DNA of 40,191 nt from UHGV virus genome UHGV-1553673; one strand, given 5' to 3'. The notes beneath the pieces are model-generated. The model saw only the letters and a program-made list of their open reading frames with translations. It did no database searches and was not told the DNA's origin. This DNA is from a virus. The stretch's first letter is position 1. Every line of letters begins with the position of its first letter. Below, piece by piece: positions 2,692 to 38,625 of the stretch. The position numbers and the translations under genes were made by a program.

Positions 2692-3368
2692 TGATTGCCT
2701 CCTTTGCGAAGCTGGGCAGCAAAGTCAACTAACCACTCAGTCATTTCAACCTTCCCTACCAGGTCTGAACCAGGGTGCATACAGCAATCACTCTGCGCCG
2801 CTTTGAAATCCTTACACTCATATTCTTGGGCCACCAGATTTTTTGCAGCTTCTATAGCAGCATCCACCCCCTGCGCCCGGACTTCAGCCAGGAAAGCATC
2901 AGTGGTTGGCGTTTCAGGTATCTGTCTCCTCATCCGTTCTATTGCATGATTGAACCCGAAGTCTTCCGCGAGAGATACGTCATCCATATTGTCATTGTCA
3001 TCCTCAATATCCCGTGATTCTGGAATTGCAAACTTTATTCCCGCATTCTCCGCTGCCAGCGCCGCGCACTTGGCTTCAAGAGCTGCAACCACTTCCTGAT
3101 GGTCTTTGTACTTAACGTATGAGCCGGAGATGTCATCACCTTCGGTGTTTAGCCATGCGTCATTGCAATTCACTGCGTAGGTTCTGATGCTGATGCTCTC
3201 CCGCCCCTGACAGACGCCAGGCCAGTCAATAAAGTATCCGCAATGCCTACCCTCAGACGTGCGCGCAGGATAAATGCCGTTATGACCCGGCAAAATATAT
3301 GCTACCCATTCATCTTGCGTTGCCTGTTCCGCCGCCTCGCGCAGTTCTTGATAGTCAATCTTGCTCAC
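2688..3368 (-). CDS. Ea22-like family protein, paralog B
   Basis: N-terminus [13 protein letters not shown]; C-terminus [13 protein letters not shown]...LRKGGNQ shared with paralog C. Confidence 0.6.
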   Translation of the reverse strand: MSKIDYQELREAAEQATQDEWVAYILPGHNGIYPARTSEGRHCGYFIDWPGVCQGRESISIRTYAVNCNDAWLNTEGDDISGSYVKYKDHQEVVAALEAKCAALAAENAGIKFAIPESRDIEDDNDNMDDVSLAEDFGFNHAIERMRRQIPETPTTDAFLAEVRAQGVDAAIEAAKNLVAQEYECKDFKAAQSDCCMHPGSDLVGKVEMTEWLVDFAAQLRKGGNQ

Positions 3369-30180: not shown

Positions 30181-31569
30181 ATGGCTACTTGGCAAGGAAC
30201 AAACGGCGGATTGTTGGCTGGTATCGGCGGCGTCAACTCAAACGCTCCGATCGTAAATGACATCGGCAATACGCTTCAGCTTATCAGGCAGAACAATGAT
30301 ATTGAGCGTTCAGGCGCTAACAATGTTGGGCTGACTGCTTTGCAAGGTCTTTCAGGTATTGCAGGGGTGTTTCAGCAGGAAAAGCAGGCTCAGCGGCAGA
30401 AAGAATTTCAGCAGGCATACGCTAATGCTTATGCGTCTGGTGATCGCGGTGCTTTGCGTCAGTTGGCTACTCAATATCCAGACCAGATTGAATCTGTTCG
30501 TAAAGGCATGGGGTTCATTGATGAAGACCAGCGCAATTCTATCGGCACCTTAGCGGCTGGCGCCCGCCTTGCATCATCGTCTCCAGAAGCAATGCAATCA
30601 TGGCTGCAAAACAACGCCAAGGAACTGACTCGCGTCGGTGTTGACCCTAATAACGTTGCTCAGATGTATCAGCAGAACCCTTCAGGATTTGGTGAGTTTG
30701 TTGATCACCTTGGAATGGCTGCTCTTGGTCCGATTGATTACTTCAATGTTCAGGACAAGATGGCTGGTCGTGAGATTGATCGCGGAAAACTTGCAGAGAC
30801 AATCCGCAGCAATCAGGCTGGCGAGGCGCTAACAGCACGAGGCCAGAACATCACGATGCGCGGTCAGGACTTATCTGCTTCTACTGCGCGACGCGGGCAG
30901 GATTTGGCAATGCAGCGAGCGTCAACAAGAGGAACCGCTGGGAATGATGAGCGTACAGTTCAGTTATCAGATGGCAGAACTGTAACGGTAGGCGGGAAAC
31001 TTCACGGCGCTGGGGCTAATGCGTTCTACGAAGGCATCGACAACGAGGGGAATATGGTTCGCGTTCCTGCCAGTTCAATCGCAGCGCCTGCAACATCGTC
31101 TGCATCAGCACAAAACTATGCCATGAAGAAGGATATCGACGCGATCGCAAATGCAGACGCTTCTGCTCTCGATTTCATGACAGGAATGACAGGCGGTGCA
31201 GGTAATCCAGCAATTGGTGCTGATGTTCGCAGCCGATTAACAGGAAAAGAGCAGCGCCAGTTATATAACTCAGCACAACGTATTCAGGGCAGAATGCAGA
31301 ATCAGGGTGTGGCGGCAGCAAGGGATATGGGTGCCAGTGGTATTAACACCGTTGCAGAAGCGAAGATGTATTTTCAGGGGATGCCGCAGGTTGACTATTC
31401 AAGCCCGGAGGCTATGCAGCAGTCGATTCGTGAGATTCAGGAATACACCAACAATTACAACCAACAATATAACGTTAATGTTGGTAAATCTCAGCGGCAG
31501 CAATCTCAACCTGCACAGGTATCACAGCCAGCAGCCAGCAGTAACTTTTCTTCACTATGGGGTGATTAA
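30181..31569 (+). CDS. Ejection protein (P22 gp20-like)
   Basis: 462 aa; synteny. Confidence 0.75.
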
Positions 31570-33566
31570 TGGCTAAAGCATGGAAAGATGTTATCGCCTC
31601 TCCACAGTATCAGGCGTTAGCACCAGAACAAAAAGCGCAGGCTCAGGAGCAATACTTCAATGAAGTCGTGGCCCCGCAAGCCGGAGAAAATGCAGAGCAG
31701 GCTAAGCAAGCTTTCTATGCTGCCTATCCATTGCCATCTGTGCAGCCAGTGGAGACACAACAACCAGAAGCACAGCAACAACCACAGCAAAGTGGATTTA
31801 TGTCTGATCTTGGCGAAGCAGTAAAAGAGACTGGTCGCGGACTGGTGCAGGCTGGCGTGAACGTGGCAAACATACCTGCATCAGTTGCAGATGCTGTAAC
31901 AAGCGCGGCGGCTTGGGCTGGCGGTAAACTCGGCATTGGCGATGGTACATATCACCCAGCGCCACGAGTAACAACGCAGGGATTAGAGCAGGACTTTGGC
32001 CTTCAGCAAGGCGCGCTGACTCCACAAACGACAGAGGGAAGGGTATTTGCTGAAGCATTGCCTTACCTCACTCCTGCTGGCGTTGAGAGAGCGGCAACAC
32101 AGGCACCAACACTTGCTGGTCGAATTGCTCAGGGTGCAACTCGCCTTCTCGCTGAAAACGCAGTTGGATCACTTGCTGCAAATAGTGCGAAAGATGATGC
32201 GGAAGCACTCGCCACCGATTTAGGCGTTGGTGTGCTGGCTGGCGGTGCTATTAACGCTGCCGGACGTGGATTAGGTGCTGCTTATCGTGGCGTACGTGGT
32301 GCTATTGCGCCAGAAGCGCAGCAGGCTATCAGATTTGCAGAGCGTGAAGGAGTTCCTCTGCACACCACAGACCTGTTACAACCAACTTCACGCGTCGGAA
32401 AAATGGCGCAGACTACAGCAGAAAATATCCCTCTGGCTGGCACAAGCGGAATGAGAGCAACGCAACAGGAAGCGAGAAGCCAGTTGGTGCAGAGATTTGC
32501 TGATAAATTCGGTGAGTATGATCCAGCTGTTGTTATTGACAGCCTTAAAGCGAAAACATCAGGAATTCGTCGTGCCGCCGGTAATCGACTGGAGCAGGTT
32601 CAGAATGCTATGGCTGGAGTAAACATTCAGCCTGCACGAGCAATTCAGCAGATTGATACAGAAATATCTAACCTGCAGAAGCTTGGTAAGGTTGCTGATA
32701 ACGAGACTATTTCAAAACTTCAGTCATATCGTGATGAGCTTGTTCGCAATGCTGGTCCTGATGGTCCGGTAAATCTGGATTTGAAGCAATTAAGCGACCT
32801 GCGCAGCCAGTTCAGAATGGACGTGAAGGGTGAGCGACCAGTGTTACCAAACCGTTCCGATGCCGCCATTCAGCGCGTTTACAAGGCGATGACAGACGAT
32901 ATCAATGGTGCCATTGGTCAGAATCTTGGCAACGATACTCTCCGTAAATATCAGCAGGCCAATGCCGTCTACGCTGACGAAGCAGCGAAACTAAAGAATA
33001 CCAGGCTGAAGAATGTTCTCATGAAAGGCGATCTGACGCCGGAAGTTGTCAACAACATGCTATTCAGCAAGAACAAATCTGAAATTAAGACGCTGTATAA
33101 CTCAGTTGGTCGTGTTGGCAGGGCGCAAATGCGCAATGGCATCATTGGAAAGGCGATGGAGAAATCTGGCGGATCCCCTGACCAGTTCCTTCGGCAGCTT
33201 AACATCCTGCAAAACCAGACTGGCATCACATTTAAGGGGCAGGACGCTGCTTATCTGAAAGGATTGAAAAACTACCTGCAATCCACGCAGCAGGCTGCAA
33301 AAGCGGCAGTAACAACACCCACAGGACAGCAAACTATCCCGTTCATTATTGGGTATGGGACGGCAATGAACCCGGCGACAACTGGCGCAGCAGTAAGCTA
33401 CGGACTTCTTACTCGCGCCTATGAGAGCGAGCCATTCAGAAATGCAATGCTCCGAATGGCAAACACCCCACGCGGATCAACAGCCTTTGAGAAAGCAATG
33501 CAGCAGGCACAAAATGCAATTAACGCTCTGACGCAGGGGGCTAAGTCTGATGCGTTGTCAGAATAG
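31569..33566 (+). CDS. Ejection protein (P22 gp16-like)
   Basis: 665 aa; synteny after gp20. Confidence 0.75.
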   Translation: MAKAWKDVIASPQYQALAPEQKAQAQEQYFNEVVAPQAGENAEQAKQAFYAAYPLPSVQPVETQQPEAQQQPQQSGFMSDLGEAVKETGRGLVQAGVNVANIPASVADAVTSAAAWAGGKLGIGDGTYHPAPRVTTQGLEQDFGLQQGALTPQTTEGRVFAEALPYLTPAGVERAATQAPTLAGRIAQGATRLLAENAVGSLAANSAKDDAEALATDLGVGVLAGGAINAAGRGLGAAYRGVRGAIAPEAQQAIRFAEREGVPLHTTDLLQPTSRVGKMAQTTAENIPLAGTSGMRATQQEARSQLVQRFADKFGEYDPAVVIDSLKAKTSGIRRAAGNRLEQVQNAMAGVNIQPARAIQQIDTEISNLQKLGKVADNETISKLQSYRDELVRNAGPDGPVNLDLKQLSDLRSQFRMDVKGERPVLPNRSDAAIQRVYKAMTDDINGAIGQNLGNDTLRKYQQANAVYADEAAKLKNTRLKNVLMKGDLTPEVVNNMLFSKNKSEIKTLYNSVGRVGRAQMRNGIIGKAMEKSGGSPDQFLRQLNILQNQTGITFKGQDAAYLKGLKNYLQSTQQAAKAAVTTPTGQQTIPFIIGYGTAMNPATTGAAVSYGLLTRAYESEPFRNAMLRMANTPRGSTAFEKAMQQAQNAINALTQGAKSDALSE

Positions 33567-33655
33567 CTCTGCAAATACCAGGAAAGTGCAAAAACCAAAT
33601 ATGTAGAATGCAATATTCATCATATCTCTTTGCATAAATCCTCCGTAATGGATGG

Positions 33656-33916
33656 TTAGTTGCTGTCTTTTTTATATAGCTCCTTGAGCGTATCAAAGAC
33701 AATTTTCTTAACCATATCAGATTGTTGTTCTGCCATACGCTCTGCATCGTCAATGTAAACTGATGCAGAGCTTTGTTTAGTCAATGATTCTTCAATCGCT
33801 GCAATTATCTCAGAGTTCAGCGACCTGTTATTCATCTTCGCGCGCTGTTTAATTTTCTCGTGGAGTTCATGCGGAAGTCTCAAGTGAAACTGCGCCTCGT
33901 CGTATTTGCTGTACAT
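33656..33916 (-). CDS. mnt: Mnt-type ribbon-helix-helix repressor (immI)
   Basis: C-terminus DDAERMAEQQSDMVKKIVFDTLKELYKK closely resembles P22 Mnt; RHH motif at the N-terminus. Confidence 0.8.
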   Translation of the reverse strand: MYSKYDEAQFHLRLPHELHEKIKQRAKMNNRSLNSEIIAAIEESLTKQSSASVYIDDAERMAEQQSDMVKKIVFDTLKELYKKDSN

Positions 33917-34047
33917 CCTTGATGCCTCACCAGTTGGGTGGAATGGCATCGTAACCTACTGGATAAATACTCAATAGTACCATTTCGGTATGCAATCACA
34001 TCATGGTTGCATCATATCATTCGTCTGGAGCAATGAAATGTCAGATA

Positions 34048-34548
34048 TCACCTACTCAACAGATGGTCAGCAACCATGTTTGCTGCCTTATAAGCTATAG
34101 CCGCTTCATCAATGGTGTTGAATCTCCCAAGGGTTATGTTTTTACCTGAGACATTTATCTGAGCTTGCCATTGATTTCTGGCTTGACAGAAAGTTACCCC
34201 CTTGATTCCAGCATTGCTATTTCTAGGTCCGACATTTAATGCATTTACGACTCTGCTGACATCCCTAAGGTTTGAGATTGCGTTATTTCTTCTGTTTCTA
34301 TCAATGTGGTCAATCTCTTGTTTGGGCCATTCGCCATATACATACAGCCAGGCAAGTCTATGTGCAAAATATCTTACGCCATCAATATTAATTGCGTTAT
34401 ATCCATAAGAAATTGTGCCAGCAACTTTCCCAACAGCACCTCTGGCGCTTAATTTCTTTTTCCAAGTGAAAATTCCTGTTTCTTTATTGTAATCGAGAAC
34501 CTCCATAAGGCGCTCCCGAGTTACTACCTCGTGACGTCTCTTACTCAT
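34048..34548 (-). CDS. HNH homing-type endonuclease with AP2-like DNA-binding domain
   Basis: HNH block [33 protein letters not shown]; AP2-like [17 protein letters not shown]; GGAGA RBS before the ATG at 34548. Confidence 0.75.
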
Positions 34549-34570
34549 TATTTTCTCCGGAATGTTTATT

Positions 34571-36745
34571 ATGCCAGAACAATTATACAACGTTGTTGTT
34601 TCACAACCAAGTCAGTTATTTACTTTAGCTCGCTCGTTTAAAGCAAATGCCAATGGCAAAATTTATATAGGAAAAATTGACACTAACCCGGTAAATCCTG
34701 AAAACCAGATTCAGGTTTATGTGGAGAACGAAGACGGCTCTCACGTTCCTGTTTCGCAACCAATCATCATTAACGCTGCTGGTTATCCTGTATATAACGG
34801 ACAGATTGCCAAATTCGTTACTGTACAGGGCCATTCTATGGCTGTTTATGATGCGTACGGTGCTCAGCAGTTCTATTTCCCTAATGTACTGAAATATGAC
34901 CCCGACCAATTCAGTATTGACATCGTTAATCAGCTTGCTCAAACGGGTAAATATTTAGATGATGAAAGTAAAGGTGATGCGTTAATTGGCGTTAAACAGC
35001 CTTTTTTTGATGCAATAAGAAGGACTCAGCATGATAAAAATTCTGACCTGCTATCCATACAAGATTTAGGGGCAATAAGTGGCTTAGCTAATCCAGAGGT
35101 GGATGACAAAGTTATTTCTGTGCTTAATGCTAATGCTGGATTGTTAATTCCTGCTGGATTTGTCTACGTGACATCTAAGCCAATAGCTACATCGGCAGGT
35201 AAAGTCTTTAGCATCGTATGCCCAAATGGAAGGGCCACCATCAAAGCATCAGGAAACTATGCAATGTTCACTCAACCAGGCATGTTCAAATTTGAGAGAT
35301 GTCTTTTTGAAAACATACTGTTTATTGGTAATGGAGTATCTGATCTGAAATCAGTGTTCATGGAGGCTGATGATGGTGAGTGGGTGGCTAACTTTGCAAC
35401 ATATAACTGCTCATGGGAAGCATTCCATACTATATGGAATGCTTCATGGATTGCAGTATATCATTATTACCCTAAATTTAAATCTGTGAACGATTCAGGA
35501 TATATTCTTACTACGAATAAGTCTGGTGCAAATAACTTTGCAGCATTCAATCTCAATGTTATGGATAACCCAATATTCGAAAACTGTAGAGCAAGAATTT
35601 ACTTCGATATAACAGGTGGATTTAATTTTACCATCAACAATCCATGGATTGAGAAAGGTGAGGTTTTTGGTGGTGCATTTTTTAGACTAAGGCAGTTCTT
35701 TAATTTCAAAGTTATTGATGGTTGGTTTGAGTATTTCAAAGGGGGAAATTTTCTGTACTTAAGAACAGATGGCACAGAGAATACACAATCTGACAACATA
35801 ACTTTTGATGGGATGCACATTAATAACTCTCGCTCTGATTCAGAATTTAAAGGATTGGTTTTAATGGATCAGCCGCAATATGCAGAGAATTATACCGATC
35901 CTAAATTTACGTTTAAGAATATTGTAGAACACAATAGCTCTTCTTCAGGATGGTACTTACTAAAATCCGGTGATGTTACCAATCGCTCAGAATCACTTAC
36001 CGTAATAGAAAATCTTCGTCTTAAATATGGACATCCACCTTGCTCAGATGGAATGACTATAGCAAGAACACAAGACGGAAATAGCCCAGACATTAAAAAC
36101 TCTACAAGAAACCTTAGCACTAATGGTTTACAGTTTCTGCCTAGAGCCTTTCAAACAACAACATACCGGACAAAAAATGGAGAATATCAGCAACAACAAA
36201 TAGTTGATAGTACATCTAATATAGCATACTGGAATATCGGTACCTCAACGGTTCTCGTGTGGGGCGTAGATTATGTTAGGCCTGGTCGGCAGAACGCTCA
36301 AACATGTGGAACGTCAGCATATGCATGGTCAGGTGGGTATACACAAACAGCTTTTCAGGTCACGTCAGACAGAAACTCAAAAACAGAAGAGTCACAAATA
36401 CCTGATGCTGTTCTCGACGCCTGGGGTGACGTTCAGTATGTATCATATAAATTAAAGGCAAGCGTGGCAGAAAAAGGTAGTAAAGCCCGGAGACATATTG
36501 GGGTCATAGCCCAAGACATCAAGACAGCTTTTGAATCACATGGGGTTGATCCATTCGAATATGGCATACTATGTTATGACAATACCCCAGCAACAGAAGC
36601 TGTTTACGATATTTTAGAAGATGGTACTCAGGTAATGCTTCAGGAGGCACGTGATGCTCACTCAGGTTACACTGTACGCTACGAAGAAATACTTTGTCTT
36701 GAGGCTGCATATATGCGTAGAGAGATAAAAAGGATGCAGAAATAA
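34571..36745 (+). CDS. Tailspike: P22-like N-terminal head-binding domain, distinct central beta-helix domain, C-terminal intramolecular chaperone (S74-type) domain
   Basis: N-terminus aligns to P22 gp9 (VVVS.P...F...[33 protein letters not shown]); C-terminal ...[10 protein letters not shown]... chaperone-like module. Confidence 0.85.
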
Positions 36746-36837: not shown

Positions 36838-38625
36838 TTATTTCAAAGATTGAAGTAAGTCTGTTTTTTTGTCTAAGACTTCTCCAATGTAACTTGCTCC
36901 ATATTTCGTTAGATGGTTTGCATCATATGATAAAAATTTGCCATTCTCATCAAAAACTCTAACCATTCCATTGTTGTCTTTTATAAGGTCAAACAAATCT
37001 ATGTAGTCATCGCCAAAAATCATTTTCGCCTTATTGTTAAACTCTATATATCTTGATAGCGGGTATGTTTTTGCTAAAACTCTGTCATTAAGAGACAGGT
37101 TAACAGCAAAGTTATTGTTATACCCGAAGTTTTTTGTGCCAATCAAGTACATTTTTGCAGTTGTTTTTGATTTTATGTAATCGTAACAGTGTTTTAACTT
37201 TTCAACGTTATTATTATAGTCGCCTGCACCCCAATTCTCCGAATATAAAATAATGTCTGAGTCATTCAAGTAGTAATCTAATTTATTTTTATTATCTATT
37301 GACCAATCACATCCACCCTCAAAATATACAATATTAAGATCATTTGTTTTAATCTTTGTAGATATTGCATTAATTAAATCTCTCGCATATGAGTTACCCA
37401 TGATTAATATTTTCTTTCCATTGTCTGAGAACTCAATATTCTTTAATTTCTTCGGGCTATCCACATACTCCTGTGGATTTCCTCCATATGCAAGATCAGG
37501 CCTGATATTTTGCAATCCATATGTTTTGTGCATCAAAATTCCTGATGCTGATAACACCAACGAAAATGCTAATGTATATGATAAGATTTTTTTTGTAGAT
37601 GTTTTTCTCTTGTTTCTGAATGGTTTTTCTACAAAAACATAAGACATCCACGATATAATAAAAATTAAAGGAATGGATGCGATAAAATATGTTGTTGACG
37701 GTTCAAATTTTGAGTTTAATCTTATAAATGCAAAAACAGGTTGATGCCAAAGGTATAGAGAATAACTTATCATGCCACATAACACAATTGGTTTTATTGA
37801 CATGAGCTTTCCAATTCCTTTAGATGCATTTGAATGCATTAAAAACAAACATGCACCAAGAACTGGAAATAATGTTTCAAATCCAGGGTGTGATTTTTTA
37901 CCATTCACAATGAAGTAACTTGATATTATCAATAAAAAACCAAGGTATGCTAAGATGTTACTTTTTCTTTTTATTTTATAGTGCGCAATAGCGGCAACCC
38001 CACCAAGAGCAATCTCCCACGCCCTTGAAGGGAGCATAAGAAATGAAAGCTCCATATTATGCACTGTTGTAATTGTTGCATATAAAAAACTGGCAATTGA
38101 TATTACCAGTAAAAACATAAAACTATTCTTTATTAGTTTATTATGATTTATTGAGTAAATTATATATATTATTACAGGGGCTACAAGATAATACTGTTCT
38201 TCTACAGCAAGACTCCATGTGTGATACAATGGTTTAAATTCAGATGCTGTAGACCAATATCCTGACGTTAAGTACAATAATATATTGTTTGCTGAAAAAA
38301 TTGTTGCAACAACTGATTGACCTAGATTCTTTAGGTCATATGGAACCATCATAAATAATGATATAATGAATGTTACTGATGTCATTAGAATTAATGCAGG
38401 CGCAATTCTACGAACCCTTCTCTCATAAAACCCAGAGAATGTAAATGTTCTATTGCTGCATTCTTTCAGCAAAATGCTGGTAATTAAAAAACCACTAATA
38501 ACAAAAAAAACATCTACTCCAAGAAAGCCGCCAGGAATCCATTGAACACCTGCATGAAAAAAGATAACAGGTAAAACAGCTAATGTTCTCAACCCATCAA
38601 TTTCGGGTCTGTATTTCAGTTCCAT
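36838..38625 (-). CDS. O-antigen acyltransferase, OafA/Oac-type (acyltransferase-3 membrane domain + SGNH domain); lysogenic conversion gene
   Basis: 595 aa; multi-TM N-terminal half (MELKYRPEIDGLRTLAVLPVIFFHAG...); C-terminal GNSYARD SGNH-like motif; strongly AT-rich. Confidence 0.8.
   Translation of the reverse strand: MELKYRPEIDGLRTLAVLPVIFFHAGVQWIPGGFLGVDVFFVISGFLITSILLKECSNRTFTFSGFYERRVRRIAPALILMTSVTFIISLFMMVPYDLKNLGQSVVATIFSANNILLYLTSGYWSTASEFKPLYHTWSLAVEEQYYLVAPVIIYIIYSINHNKLIKNSFMFLLVISIASFLYATITTVHNMELSFLMLPSRAWEIALGGVAAIAHYKIKRKSNILAYLGFLLIISSYFIVNGKKSHPGFETLFPVLGACLFLMHSNASKGIGKLMSIKPIVLCGMISYSLYLWHQPVFAFIRLNSKFEPSTTYFIASIPLIFIISWMSYVFVEKPFRNKRKTSTKKILSYTLAFSLVLSASGILMHKTYGLQNIRPDLAYGGNPQEYVDSPKKLKNIEFSDNGKKILIMGNSYARDLINAISTKIKTNDLNIVYFEGGCDWSIDNKNKLDYYLNDSDIILYSENWGAGDYNNNVEKLKHCYDYIKSKTTAKMYLIGTKNFGYNNNFAVNLSLNDRVLAKTYPLSRYIEFNNKAKMIFGDDYIDLFDLIKDNNGMVRVFDENGKFLSYDANHLTKYGASYIGEVLDKKTDLLQSLK

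Follow-up and report, generated by a model that had tools for sequence, protein, structure and literature searches.

A predicted homing endonuclease cassette at the start of the tailspike gene in a P22-like Escherichia coli prophage

Why does an HNH endonuclease gene sit beside a phage repressor gene that lacks its usual partners? The question is raised by the immI region of UHGV-1553673, a virus genome of 40,191 nucleotides (the whole stretch is called the window below), which is a P22-like (Lederbergvirus-type) prophage of Escherichia coli. Here the repressor gene mnt is followed by a minus-strand gene for an HNH endonuclease with an AP2-type DNA-binding domain, in the place that arc and ant hold in phage P22. 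An initial annotation of the sequence proposed that the endonuclease gene had displaced arc and ant, leaving Mnt as an orphan or re-purposed, for example to control the endonuclease. Our analysis leads to a different answer. We consider it likely that two unrelated polymorphisms happen to be side by side, an mnt-only remnant of immI and a 596-bp cassette at the tailspike start, and that the cassette is a free-standing homing endonuclease element that targets the 5' end of the tailspike gene and is independent of the mnt-only remnant.

Insertion of the cassette after tailspike codon 5

To place the endonuclease gene, we compared the window with tailspike alleles that lack it. In phages Sf101 and IME10, the empty allele reads ...GGAGCAATGAA ATG TCA GAT ATC ACC GCA AAT...; over a longer stretch, Sf101, IME10 and VSe13 share ...CTGGAGCAATGAA ATG TCA GAT ATC ACC GCA AAT ATT GTG GTA AGC, which encodes MSDITANIVVS. 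The window is identical to the empty alleles up to ATC ACC (position 34052), where it passes into the HNH gene on the opposite strand, and after that gene its tailspike reading frame begins ATG CCA GAA CAA TTA TAC AAC GTT GTT GTT TCA. The HNH gene was therefore inserted inside the tailspike open reading frame (ORF), after codon 5. Another locus with the HNH gene, L009 from IMG/VR, agrees completely with Sf101 as far as the left junction, and once more from tailspike nucleotide 79 onwards. The left junction is placed with a precision of ±1 nt, and a haplotype map of the variable sites shows the same sharp cassette edge in all loci. The breakpoint alignment thus puts the replacement in tailspike codons 6–26 (63 nt), inside the tailspike gene and outside immI, rather than in the place of immI genes.

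The cassette holds the HNH-AP2 ORF, a promoter-like site, two ribosome-binding sites (RBSs) and a substitute tailspike start followed by 26 codons. This insert also supplies the tailspike gene as it now stands with its first 78 nt, a point that the initial annotation had missed together with the remnant of the old tailspike start on the other side of the HNH gene. That remnant, with its RBS and ATG, is kept in all 30 loci that we compared (described below), and a substitute or duplicate start for the tailspike gene is present in each of them. The HNH ORF does not bring a stop codon with it: the TGA that ends it (34048–34050) is made from old tailspike codons 4–5 (ATC ACC), and in ant-type contexts (phage Kapi1, locus L001, about 3026–3031) the stop is TAA, from ATT ACC. 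To the left of the HNH gene, a Salmonella lineage (L051) has seven of the old tailspike codons (ATGTCAGATATCACCGCAAAT) and the E. coli lineage five, and the junction therefore differs by 6 nt between the two. The old RBS and ATG still head an open 20-codon ORF (34038–34100, plus strand) that runs antisense into the 3' end of the HNH gene; late transcripts may allow its translation.

On the right side, the HNH gene and the tailspike gene diverge from starts that are very close together, as the initial annotation had noted: 22 nt separate the HNH ATG (34548) from the tailspike ATG (34571), or 13 nt if the in-frame ATG at 34562 is used. The 22-nt spacer is conserved in all E. coli-type loci, and the tailspike RBS that it provides (GGA) is weaker than the old GGAG. 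Over nucleotides 16–78, tailspike alleles linked to the HNH gene differ from HNH-less E. coli alleles at 27–30 of 63 nt but at only 4–5 of 21 amino acids, with synonymous divergence (dS) saturated, and HNH-less alleles differ from one another by 2–9 nt over the same stretch. The first 48 nt of the HNH-linked gene do not align to HNH-less alleles at all, and the haplotype differences extend to nucleotide 78. In the variable-site map, nucleotides 1–78 form one haplotype in all loci with the HNH gene, and past nucleotide 79 there are mosaics of single-nucleotide polymorphisms (SNPs) common to loci with and without it. In its sequence, this divergent linked flank looks like the protected flank of a homing endonuclease.

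A promoter-like site that belongs to the cassette itself seems to be embedded in the substituted codons of the tailspike gene (Table 1), at codons 4–14, with the -10 element inside codons 4–6. The -10 sequence TATAAT is found in seven of nine lineage representatives and is replaced by one-base variants in the other two (TATGAT in L028 and TATTAT in L031); it is conserved despite differing tailspike residues (PEQLY, DTIIP and DSIIA), and the -35 element is TTGGCA in L032. Late transcripts can reach the tailspike gene only by running through the cassette in antisense.

Table 1. Features of the immI–tailspike region in the window
Feature	Coordinates	Strand	Remarks
gp16-type ejection protein gene	31569-33566	+	
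mnt ORF	33656-33949 (longest form)	-	likely true start 33916, giving mnt 33659-33916, 86 aa
Candidate Mnt operator	33977-33991		palindrome GTACCATTTCGGTAT, form GTACC-N5-GGTAC
Original tailspike start remnant	34027-34052	+	RBS GGAG 34027-34030; ATG TCA GAT ATC ACC 34038-34052
Mobile cassette	34053-34648		596 bp in place of 63 nt (tailspike nt 16-78, codons 6-26)
HNH-AP2 endonuclease ORF	34048-34548	-	166 aa from MSKRRHE
Divergent spacer	34549-34570		22 nt; HNH RBS GGAG (reverse complement of 34555-34558), weak tailspike RBS GGA 34559-34561
Substitute tailspike 5' end	34571-34648	+	new ATG and 26 codons, travels with the HNH gene
Candidate sigma-70 HNH promoter	34582-34610	-	-35 TTGGTT 34610-34605, 17-nt spacer, -10 TATAAT 34587-34582
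Tailspike gene	34571-36745	+	Head_binding, receptor-binding part, Peptidase_S74 chaperone domain
AT3-SGNH acyltransferase gene	36838-38625	-	just 3' of the tailspike gene

Distribution and conservation of the cassette and its product

We collected 30 loci with HNH homologues of 76–100% identity; IMG/VR supplied 29 of them and Escherichia sp. ESNIH1 the remaining one. In all 30, the HNH gene lies 22–45 nt from, and divergent to, the start of a tailspike gene with a head-binding domain. Its left neighbour varies: nine loci are of the mnt-only type and 11 of the mnt-arc-ant type, and in the rest the HNH gene follows gp16 directly, with no ant moron between, or the arrangement is complex. Phage Kapi1, which has mnt, arc and ant, carries a 99.7% identical cassette at the same junction, as do ten IMG/VR loci of the mnt-arc-ant type, and the HNH gene is found with unrelated Mnt types as well as without any Mnt. 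The old tailspike start to the left of the cassette is in each case the one found in HNH-less alleles of the corresponding context (TCAGATATCACC in the mnt type and ACAGACATTAC in the ant type), and the same cassette therefore entered different backgrounds at the same nucleotide. Homologues with 67–82% amino acid identity from Serratia marcescens, from Salmonella and from loci whose protein NCBI names as that of Mixta calida have the same neighbourhood and a comparable remnant.

These observations bear directly on the proposal that the HNH-AP2 gene displaced arc and ant and that an orphan Mnt was then re-purposed to regulate the endonuclease. What speaks for it is position, as the HNH gene occupies the place that arc and ant have in P22. 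The distribution contradicts it in three ways: the HNH gene coexists with mnt-arc-ant, mnt-only regions without the HNH gene occur in Sf101, IME10 and sampled E. coli prophages, and the HNH gene occurs without mnt (L006 and L029) and elsewhere without the moron. Together with breakpoints that lie inside the tailspike gene, this makes displacement very improbable.

Conservation of the cassette differs sharply from that of its flanks. Among the 23 E. coli-type loci with the HNH gene, pairwise identity averages 99.56% over the 596-bp cassette (minimum 98.8%) and 89.7% (minimum 74%) over the adjacent tailspike nucleotides 82–345 (264 nt). There are 13 distinct cassette sequences as against 20 distinct right flanks, and the cassette occurs with 18 distinct receptor-binding modules and in at least four left contexts. 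The HNH ORF is intact in all 23 loci, with 0–1 substitutions. We found the cassette in 15 of 5,426 complete E. coli genomes, all copies being at least 99% identical, and only three of the genomes with the HNH gene are of the mnt-only type; a P22-like head-binding domain is present in about 1,190 of the 5,426 (1,287 places). Decaying HNH copies also exist, a diverged one with a frameshift (L036, 4001–4497) and one truncated at its 3' end (E. coli 30COLEC, H72), as expected for a selfish gene. The occurrence of one junction across several backgrounds and the step in identity at its edge support the view, already put forward in the initial annotation, that the HNH-AP2 gene behaves as a mobile element.

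The same pattern might arise if the cassette were a stationary, vertically inherited moron that only seems to move because the ant moron to its left and the tailspike modules to its right recombine very often. Both neighbours are known recombination hot spots, the tailspike in its receptor-binding domains (PMC2629481, PMC5261728), and the SNP mosaic of the right flank is common to HNH-less alleles. Such a history, however, needs breakpoints within a few nucleotides of both cassette edges in every lineage, and it has to accommodate a 15-nt remnant on the left that fits each local context, a divergence that is about 25-fold lower in the cassette than in the DNA 3 nt past its edge, and a catalytic motif and ORF intact in 23 of 23 loci. 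We therefore regard a stationary cassette as unlikely, and a mobile one as the better account of these loci.

The product of the gene, which GenBank and RefSeq records call 'HNH endonuclease', matches Pfam PF13392 (HNH_3) with 59.7 bits against a cut-off of 24.8 and PHROG 99, 'HNH endonuclease', with an E value of 7e-63. Residues D80, H81, N89, N93 and N105 are invariant across 22 homologues and align to the DH..NN..N catalytic segment of I-HmuI. In an AlphaFold model with a pLDDT of 88.9, the top Protein Data Bank match of the nuclease part is I-HmuI (1u3e; Foldseek probability 1.00, E 4e-3, 95 columns, 25% identity), a match that covers the nuclease domain only. The C-terminal part of the model matches the AP2 domains of the plant proteins TEM1 and AtERF1 (root-mean-square deviation 1.3–1.5 Å, probability 1.00), and G114, G141, A149 and A152 in this part are invariant among the homologues; the model thus confirms the AP2 fold that the initial annotation had assigned. 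More distant HNH-AP2 homologues (P0018, P0021, P0023, P0030 and P0035; about 40–45% identity, 250–290 aa) have a duplicated N-terminal module before the HNH domain.

The mnt-only region and its candidate operator

If the cassette did not displace arc and ant, their absence needs a separate account. Searches of the whole window by tblastn with Arc and Ant of P22 and Kapi1 and with SieA of P22 gave nothing with E < 0.3, which holds for the spacer at 33917–34047 as well, and an Rfam scan of 33400–34800 found neither sar RNA nor other known RNA families. Between the gp16 stop (33566) and the mnt stop (33656) there are only 89 nt, and there is therefore no sieA in that gap. The absence of arc, ant and sieA reported in the initial annotation is thus borne out. 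It is, however, a common and already known variant that is separate from the nuclease: an mnt-only 'ant moron' was described in 2008 for ST64T, ST104 and Para1, in a region that as a whole is in rapid flux (PMC2629481). The mnt type of the window, with its right-hand spacer, is present in 254–278 of the 5,426 complete E. coli genomes and, among the matches listed, usually abuts the tailspike gene directly. Sf101 and IME10 likewise have mnt only and no HNH gene, and in VSe13 mnt is followed directly by the tailspike gene. In the account that we favour, arc, sar, ant and sieA would have been lost from this lineage, or never present in it, independently of the nuclease.

The remaining repressor gene is, by its sequence, an intact gene for a Mnt-type ribbon-helix-helix repressor, in agreement with the initial annotation. 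Its product matches the Pfam profiles Arc (58.5 bits, residues 18–60) and Repressor_Mnt (52.7 bits, residues 68–93), both above the curated cut-offs, and by these profile matches has both the ribbon-helix-helix domain and the tetramerisation domain; it shares 50% identity with P22 Mnt across 80 aa and matches PHROG 795. The 86-aa form is the one annotated by PGAP in VE-T9 and A134_1EC, and the alternative in-frame upstream ATG at 33949 would add 11 aa, giving 97 aa. The arrangement resembles P22 immI (PMC2629481) in that genes 16 and 9 flank an mnt gene of opposite orientation and in the conserved operator position and CTCAATAG context; it differs in that the window lacks arc, sar, ant, sieA and orf59a.

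Mnt probably still has a working operator, for which the palindrome at 33977–33991 is the candidate. It follows the conserved CTCAATAG and corresponds in position to P22 Omnt (L005, 14822–14844), and in the alignment P22 Omnt CTCAATAGGTCCACGGTGGACCT pairs with CTCAATAGTACCATTTCGGTATG of the window. Lineages whose Mnt has the recognition strand QFHLRL (the window, VSe13, L027 and the Serratia locus L046) have GTACC-N5-GGTAC at an equal distance from mnt, whereas P22-type Mnt, with the recognition strand HFNFRM and GGTCC half-sites in place of GTACC, pairs with GGTCCACGGTGGACC instead. The palindrome therefore co-varies with the recognition strand across the lineages compared. Between this putative operator and the old tailspike RBS lies a 9-nt inverted repeat (ATGCAATCA / TGGTTGCAT, 33990–34012) that is conserved in the E. 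coli mnt-only lineage.

Does this operator serve the endonuclease? The two spacers in which an operator had been thought worth seeking, 33917–34047 and 34549–34570, differ in this respect: the first holds the palindrome, and nothing like it lies near the HNH start. The palindrome is the sole exact match within the window, and a scan of the window for it found no second Mnt operator near the HNH promoter-like site. It lies 3' of the HNH gene, about 590 bp from that promoter-like site, and therefore cannot control HNH initiation, which is a further argument against the displacement scenario and its regulatory sequel. In favour of a functional tie, the HNH gene is upstream of mnt and co-oriented with it, and no terminator was predicted between them, so that read-through into mnt is conceivable. 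Of the proposal that Mnt is an orphan or re-purposed, the first part stands insofar as Mnt lacks its P22 partners, and control of the endonuclease is unsupported.

The candidates for the target of Mnt in mnt-only phages are its own promoter and a weak rightward promoter towards the tailspike gene. In the consensus promoter and terminator scan there was no Pant-like promoter on the plus strand; by eye, the rightward Pant-like promoter of the window is degenerate in comparison with P22, with about seven of 12 consensus positions. A minus-strand match in the same scan (-35 CTGACA, 34044–34039; -10 AATGAT, 34021–34016) was rejected as Pmnt because it lies in the old tailspike start, away from the P22-equivalent position. 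An inverted repeat, GATGCC/GGCATC, surrounds the mnt Shine–Dalgarno sequence (33921–33950, minus strand), and its surroundings are conserved in Serratia and Salmonella relatives; the mnt leader hairpin predicted there is no more stable than shuffled sequence (z = -1.2).

Homing, its alternatives and what they imply

We propose that a self-contained cassette inserted after tailspike codon 5 encodes an I-HmuI-like HNH nuclease fused to an AP2 domain and carries along a replacement RBS and start codon, with 26 codons from an allele that has diverged strongly, because the essential tailspike gene must keep working. In co-infected cells, or in a lysogen newly infected by a phage, the nuclease would nick or cut HNH-less tailspike alleles in or near codons 5–26, and repair of the break from the copy with the HNH gene would copy the cassette in. 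The left homology arm would be the tailspike leader and the first 15 nt of the gene, and the right arm the conserved head-binding domain from nucleotide 79, while the divergent flank of the cassette itself would escape recognition.

Known systems provide parallels for each part of this scheme. A combination of HNH and AP2 is a known homing endonuclease architecture according to PMC10448857 (citing its ref. 45), where the family is noted in phages, cyanobacteria and protists, with 'IPA-HNH' relatives in ICP1. Like those enzymes, the protein of the window joins an N-terminal, I-HmuI-like HNH_3 domain to a C-terminal AP2 domain, and its small stand-alone gene lies beside or inside an essential structural gene and is present or absent among related phages. 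Unlike them, the element resides in temperate P22-like prophages of Enterobacterales at a fixed site in the first tailspike codons, and it brings a substitute start and 26 codons with an embedded promoter-like site. I-HmuI of phage SPO1, an intron-encoded HNH nicking enzyme, is both the best structural match and the best non-AP2 sequence match, with its D-H...N...N positions aligned, but overall similarity is weak (E 0.004–0.07), and it has a different C-terminal DNA-binding module, whereas the window protein is free-standing and has AP2. In the intronless homing of phage T4 (seg and mob), a free-standing homing endonuclease gene that lies between or within genes cuts the nearby allele that lacks it, and a divergent flank is inherited together with the endonuclease gene. 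Such co-conversion fits the sharp step in identity that we see where the cassette begins and ends; the T4 enzymes differ in being GIY-YIG (seg) or HNH without AP2 (mobE) and belong to a lytic phage, and the insertion in the window lies within an ORF and duplicates or replaces the gene start. In the literature that we searched, which did not extend to reviews of P22-like phages in subscription journals, we found no earlier description of an HNH-AP2 member at the tailspike site. The HNH gene adds a new member, with sharp boundaries, to the free-standing HNH-AP2 homing endonucleases; its site in the first tailspike codons is fixed, and its nuclease activity and homing are predicted.

Several points weigh against this reading. 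We infer cleavage and homing from sequence, and likewise the target specificity, the promoter activity and the binding by Mnt. The Pfam AP2 score of 27.6 bits is below the gathering cut-off of 33.3, and sequence alone is therefore inconclusive for that domain. The generic consensus scan did not call the HNH promoter, because the -35 element in the window agrees with the consensus at only three of six positions. The left homology arm beside the junction is short, about 15–35 nt, and filled and empty alleles were compared at the level of the locus rather than as a whole-prophage isogenic pair with and without the HNH gene. In principle, the same pattern could come from a cassette that stays in place while recombination occurs very often exactly at its edges. 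Finally, a similar 78-nt haplotype occurs without the HNH gene in E. coli GF43 (L053, 2481–2600) and Salmonella phage SEN22 (L052, 2479–2600), so that the flank is a natural allele class and not a proven 'immunity recoding'. These two alleles weaken the idea that the flank was recoded de novo for immunity, and their class is either the ancestral home of the element or the footprint of its loss.

Even with these points in mind, homing at the tailspike 5' end seems to us the probable function of the cassette. A packaging role, in which the HNH protein would work with the terminase as an accessory factor like HK97 gp74, is almost certainly not the explanation. HNH proteins with such a role exist in cos phages. 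P22-like phages, however, package DNA by a headful (pac) mechanism, and the P22 record annotates a pac site; moreover, the gene is not adjacent to the terminase genes, about 99% of related prophages do without it, and the packaging factors belong to a different HNH subfamily that lacks AP2, whereas the best matches here are I-HmuI and PHROG 99.

An explanation that overlaps with homing and does not exclude it is that the nuclease is kept mainly for the benefit of the phage or lysogen, either because the enzyme made by the prophage would cut the tailspike gene of superinfecting HNH-less P22-like phages, as a form of exclusion or marker exclusion, or because it would stimulate the exchange of host-range modules. 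The promoter-like site inside the cassette is of a constitutive type, the list of genes without expression in lysogens (PMC12922286) does not include the HNH gene of Kapi1 (Kapi1_066), 18 different receptor-binding modules are found joined to the cassette, and homing endonuclease genes at boundaries of genetic exchange have been described (PMC10448857). That only about 1% of P22-like tailspike loci in E. coli carry the cassette argues against a strong benefit, and copies are decaying. We find it doubtful that benefit is the main reason for the persistence of the gene. A related and more tentative extension of the homing model is that a homing break at the 5' edge of the conserved head-binding domain drives the exchange of tailspike (host-range) modules between P22-like prophages of Enterobacterales and that the prophage enzyme cuts the tailspike gene of superinfecting HNH-less relatives; we think this has some, though a modest, chance of being correct.

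The tailspike protein of the window matches Head_binding (1e-63) and Peptidase_S74 (4.6e-13), and its receptor-binding part (34916–36745, including the C-terminal Peptidase_S74 intramolecular chaperone domain) forms a singleton cluster among the 23 loci with the HNH gene. The acyltransferase gene beyond it, with AT3 and SGNH parts, probably encodes an O-antigen acetylase for lysogenic conversion, and Sf101 and VE-T9 have one at the same position.

For annotation, this locus shows that the true tailspike start, the leftover 20-codon ORF and a stop codon borrowed from the target are easily mis-called, and that what looks like a remodelling of immI is an ordinary mnt-only variant from the literature, unrelated to the nuclease, which corrects a tempting mis-reading. 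Most work on homing endonucleases has concerned lytic phages, among them T4, SPO1, T5 and ICP1, and the predicted one described here is site-specific and circulates in temperate prophages, those of E. coli, Salmonella and Serratia; a homologue named as Mixta has the same neighbourhood. It is a selfish cassette with boundaries defined to the base pair at the start of the tailspike gene, the host-range determinant and the most frequently exchanged module of P22-like phages. If the tentative extension proves true, a selfish nuclease would be a motor of host-range evolution and of exclusion between phages in a classic group of temperate phages.

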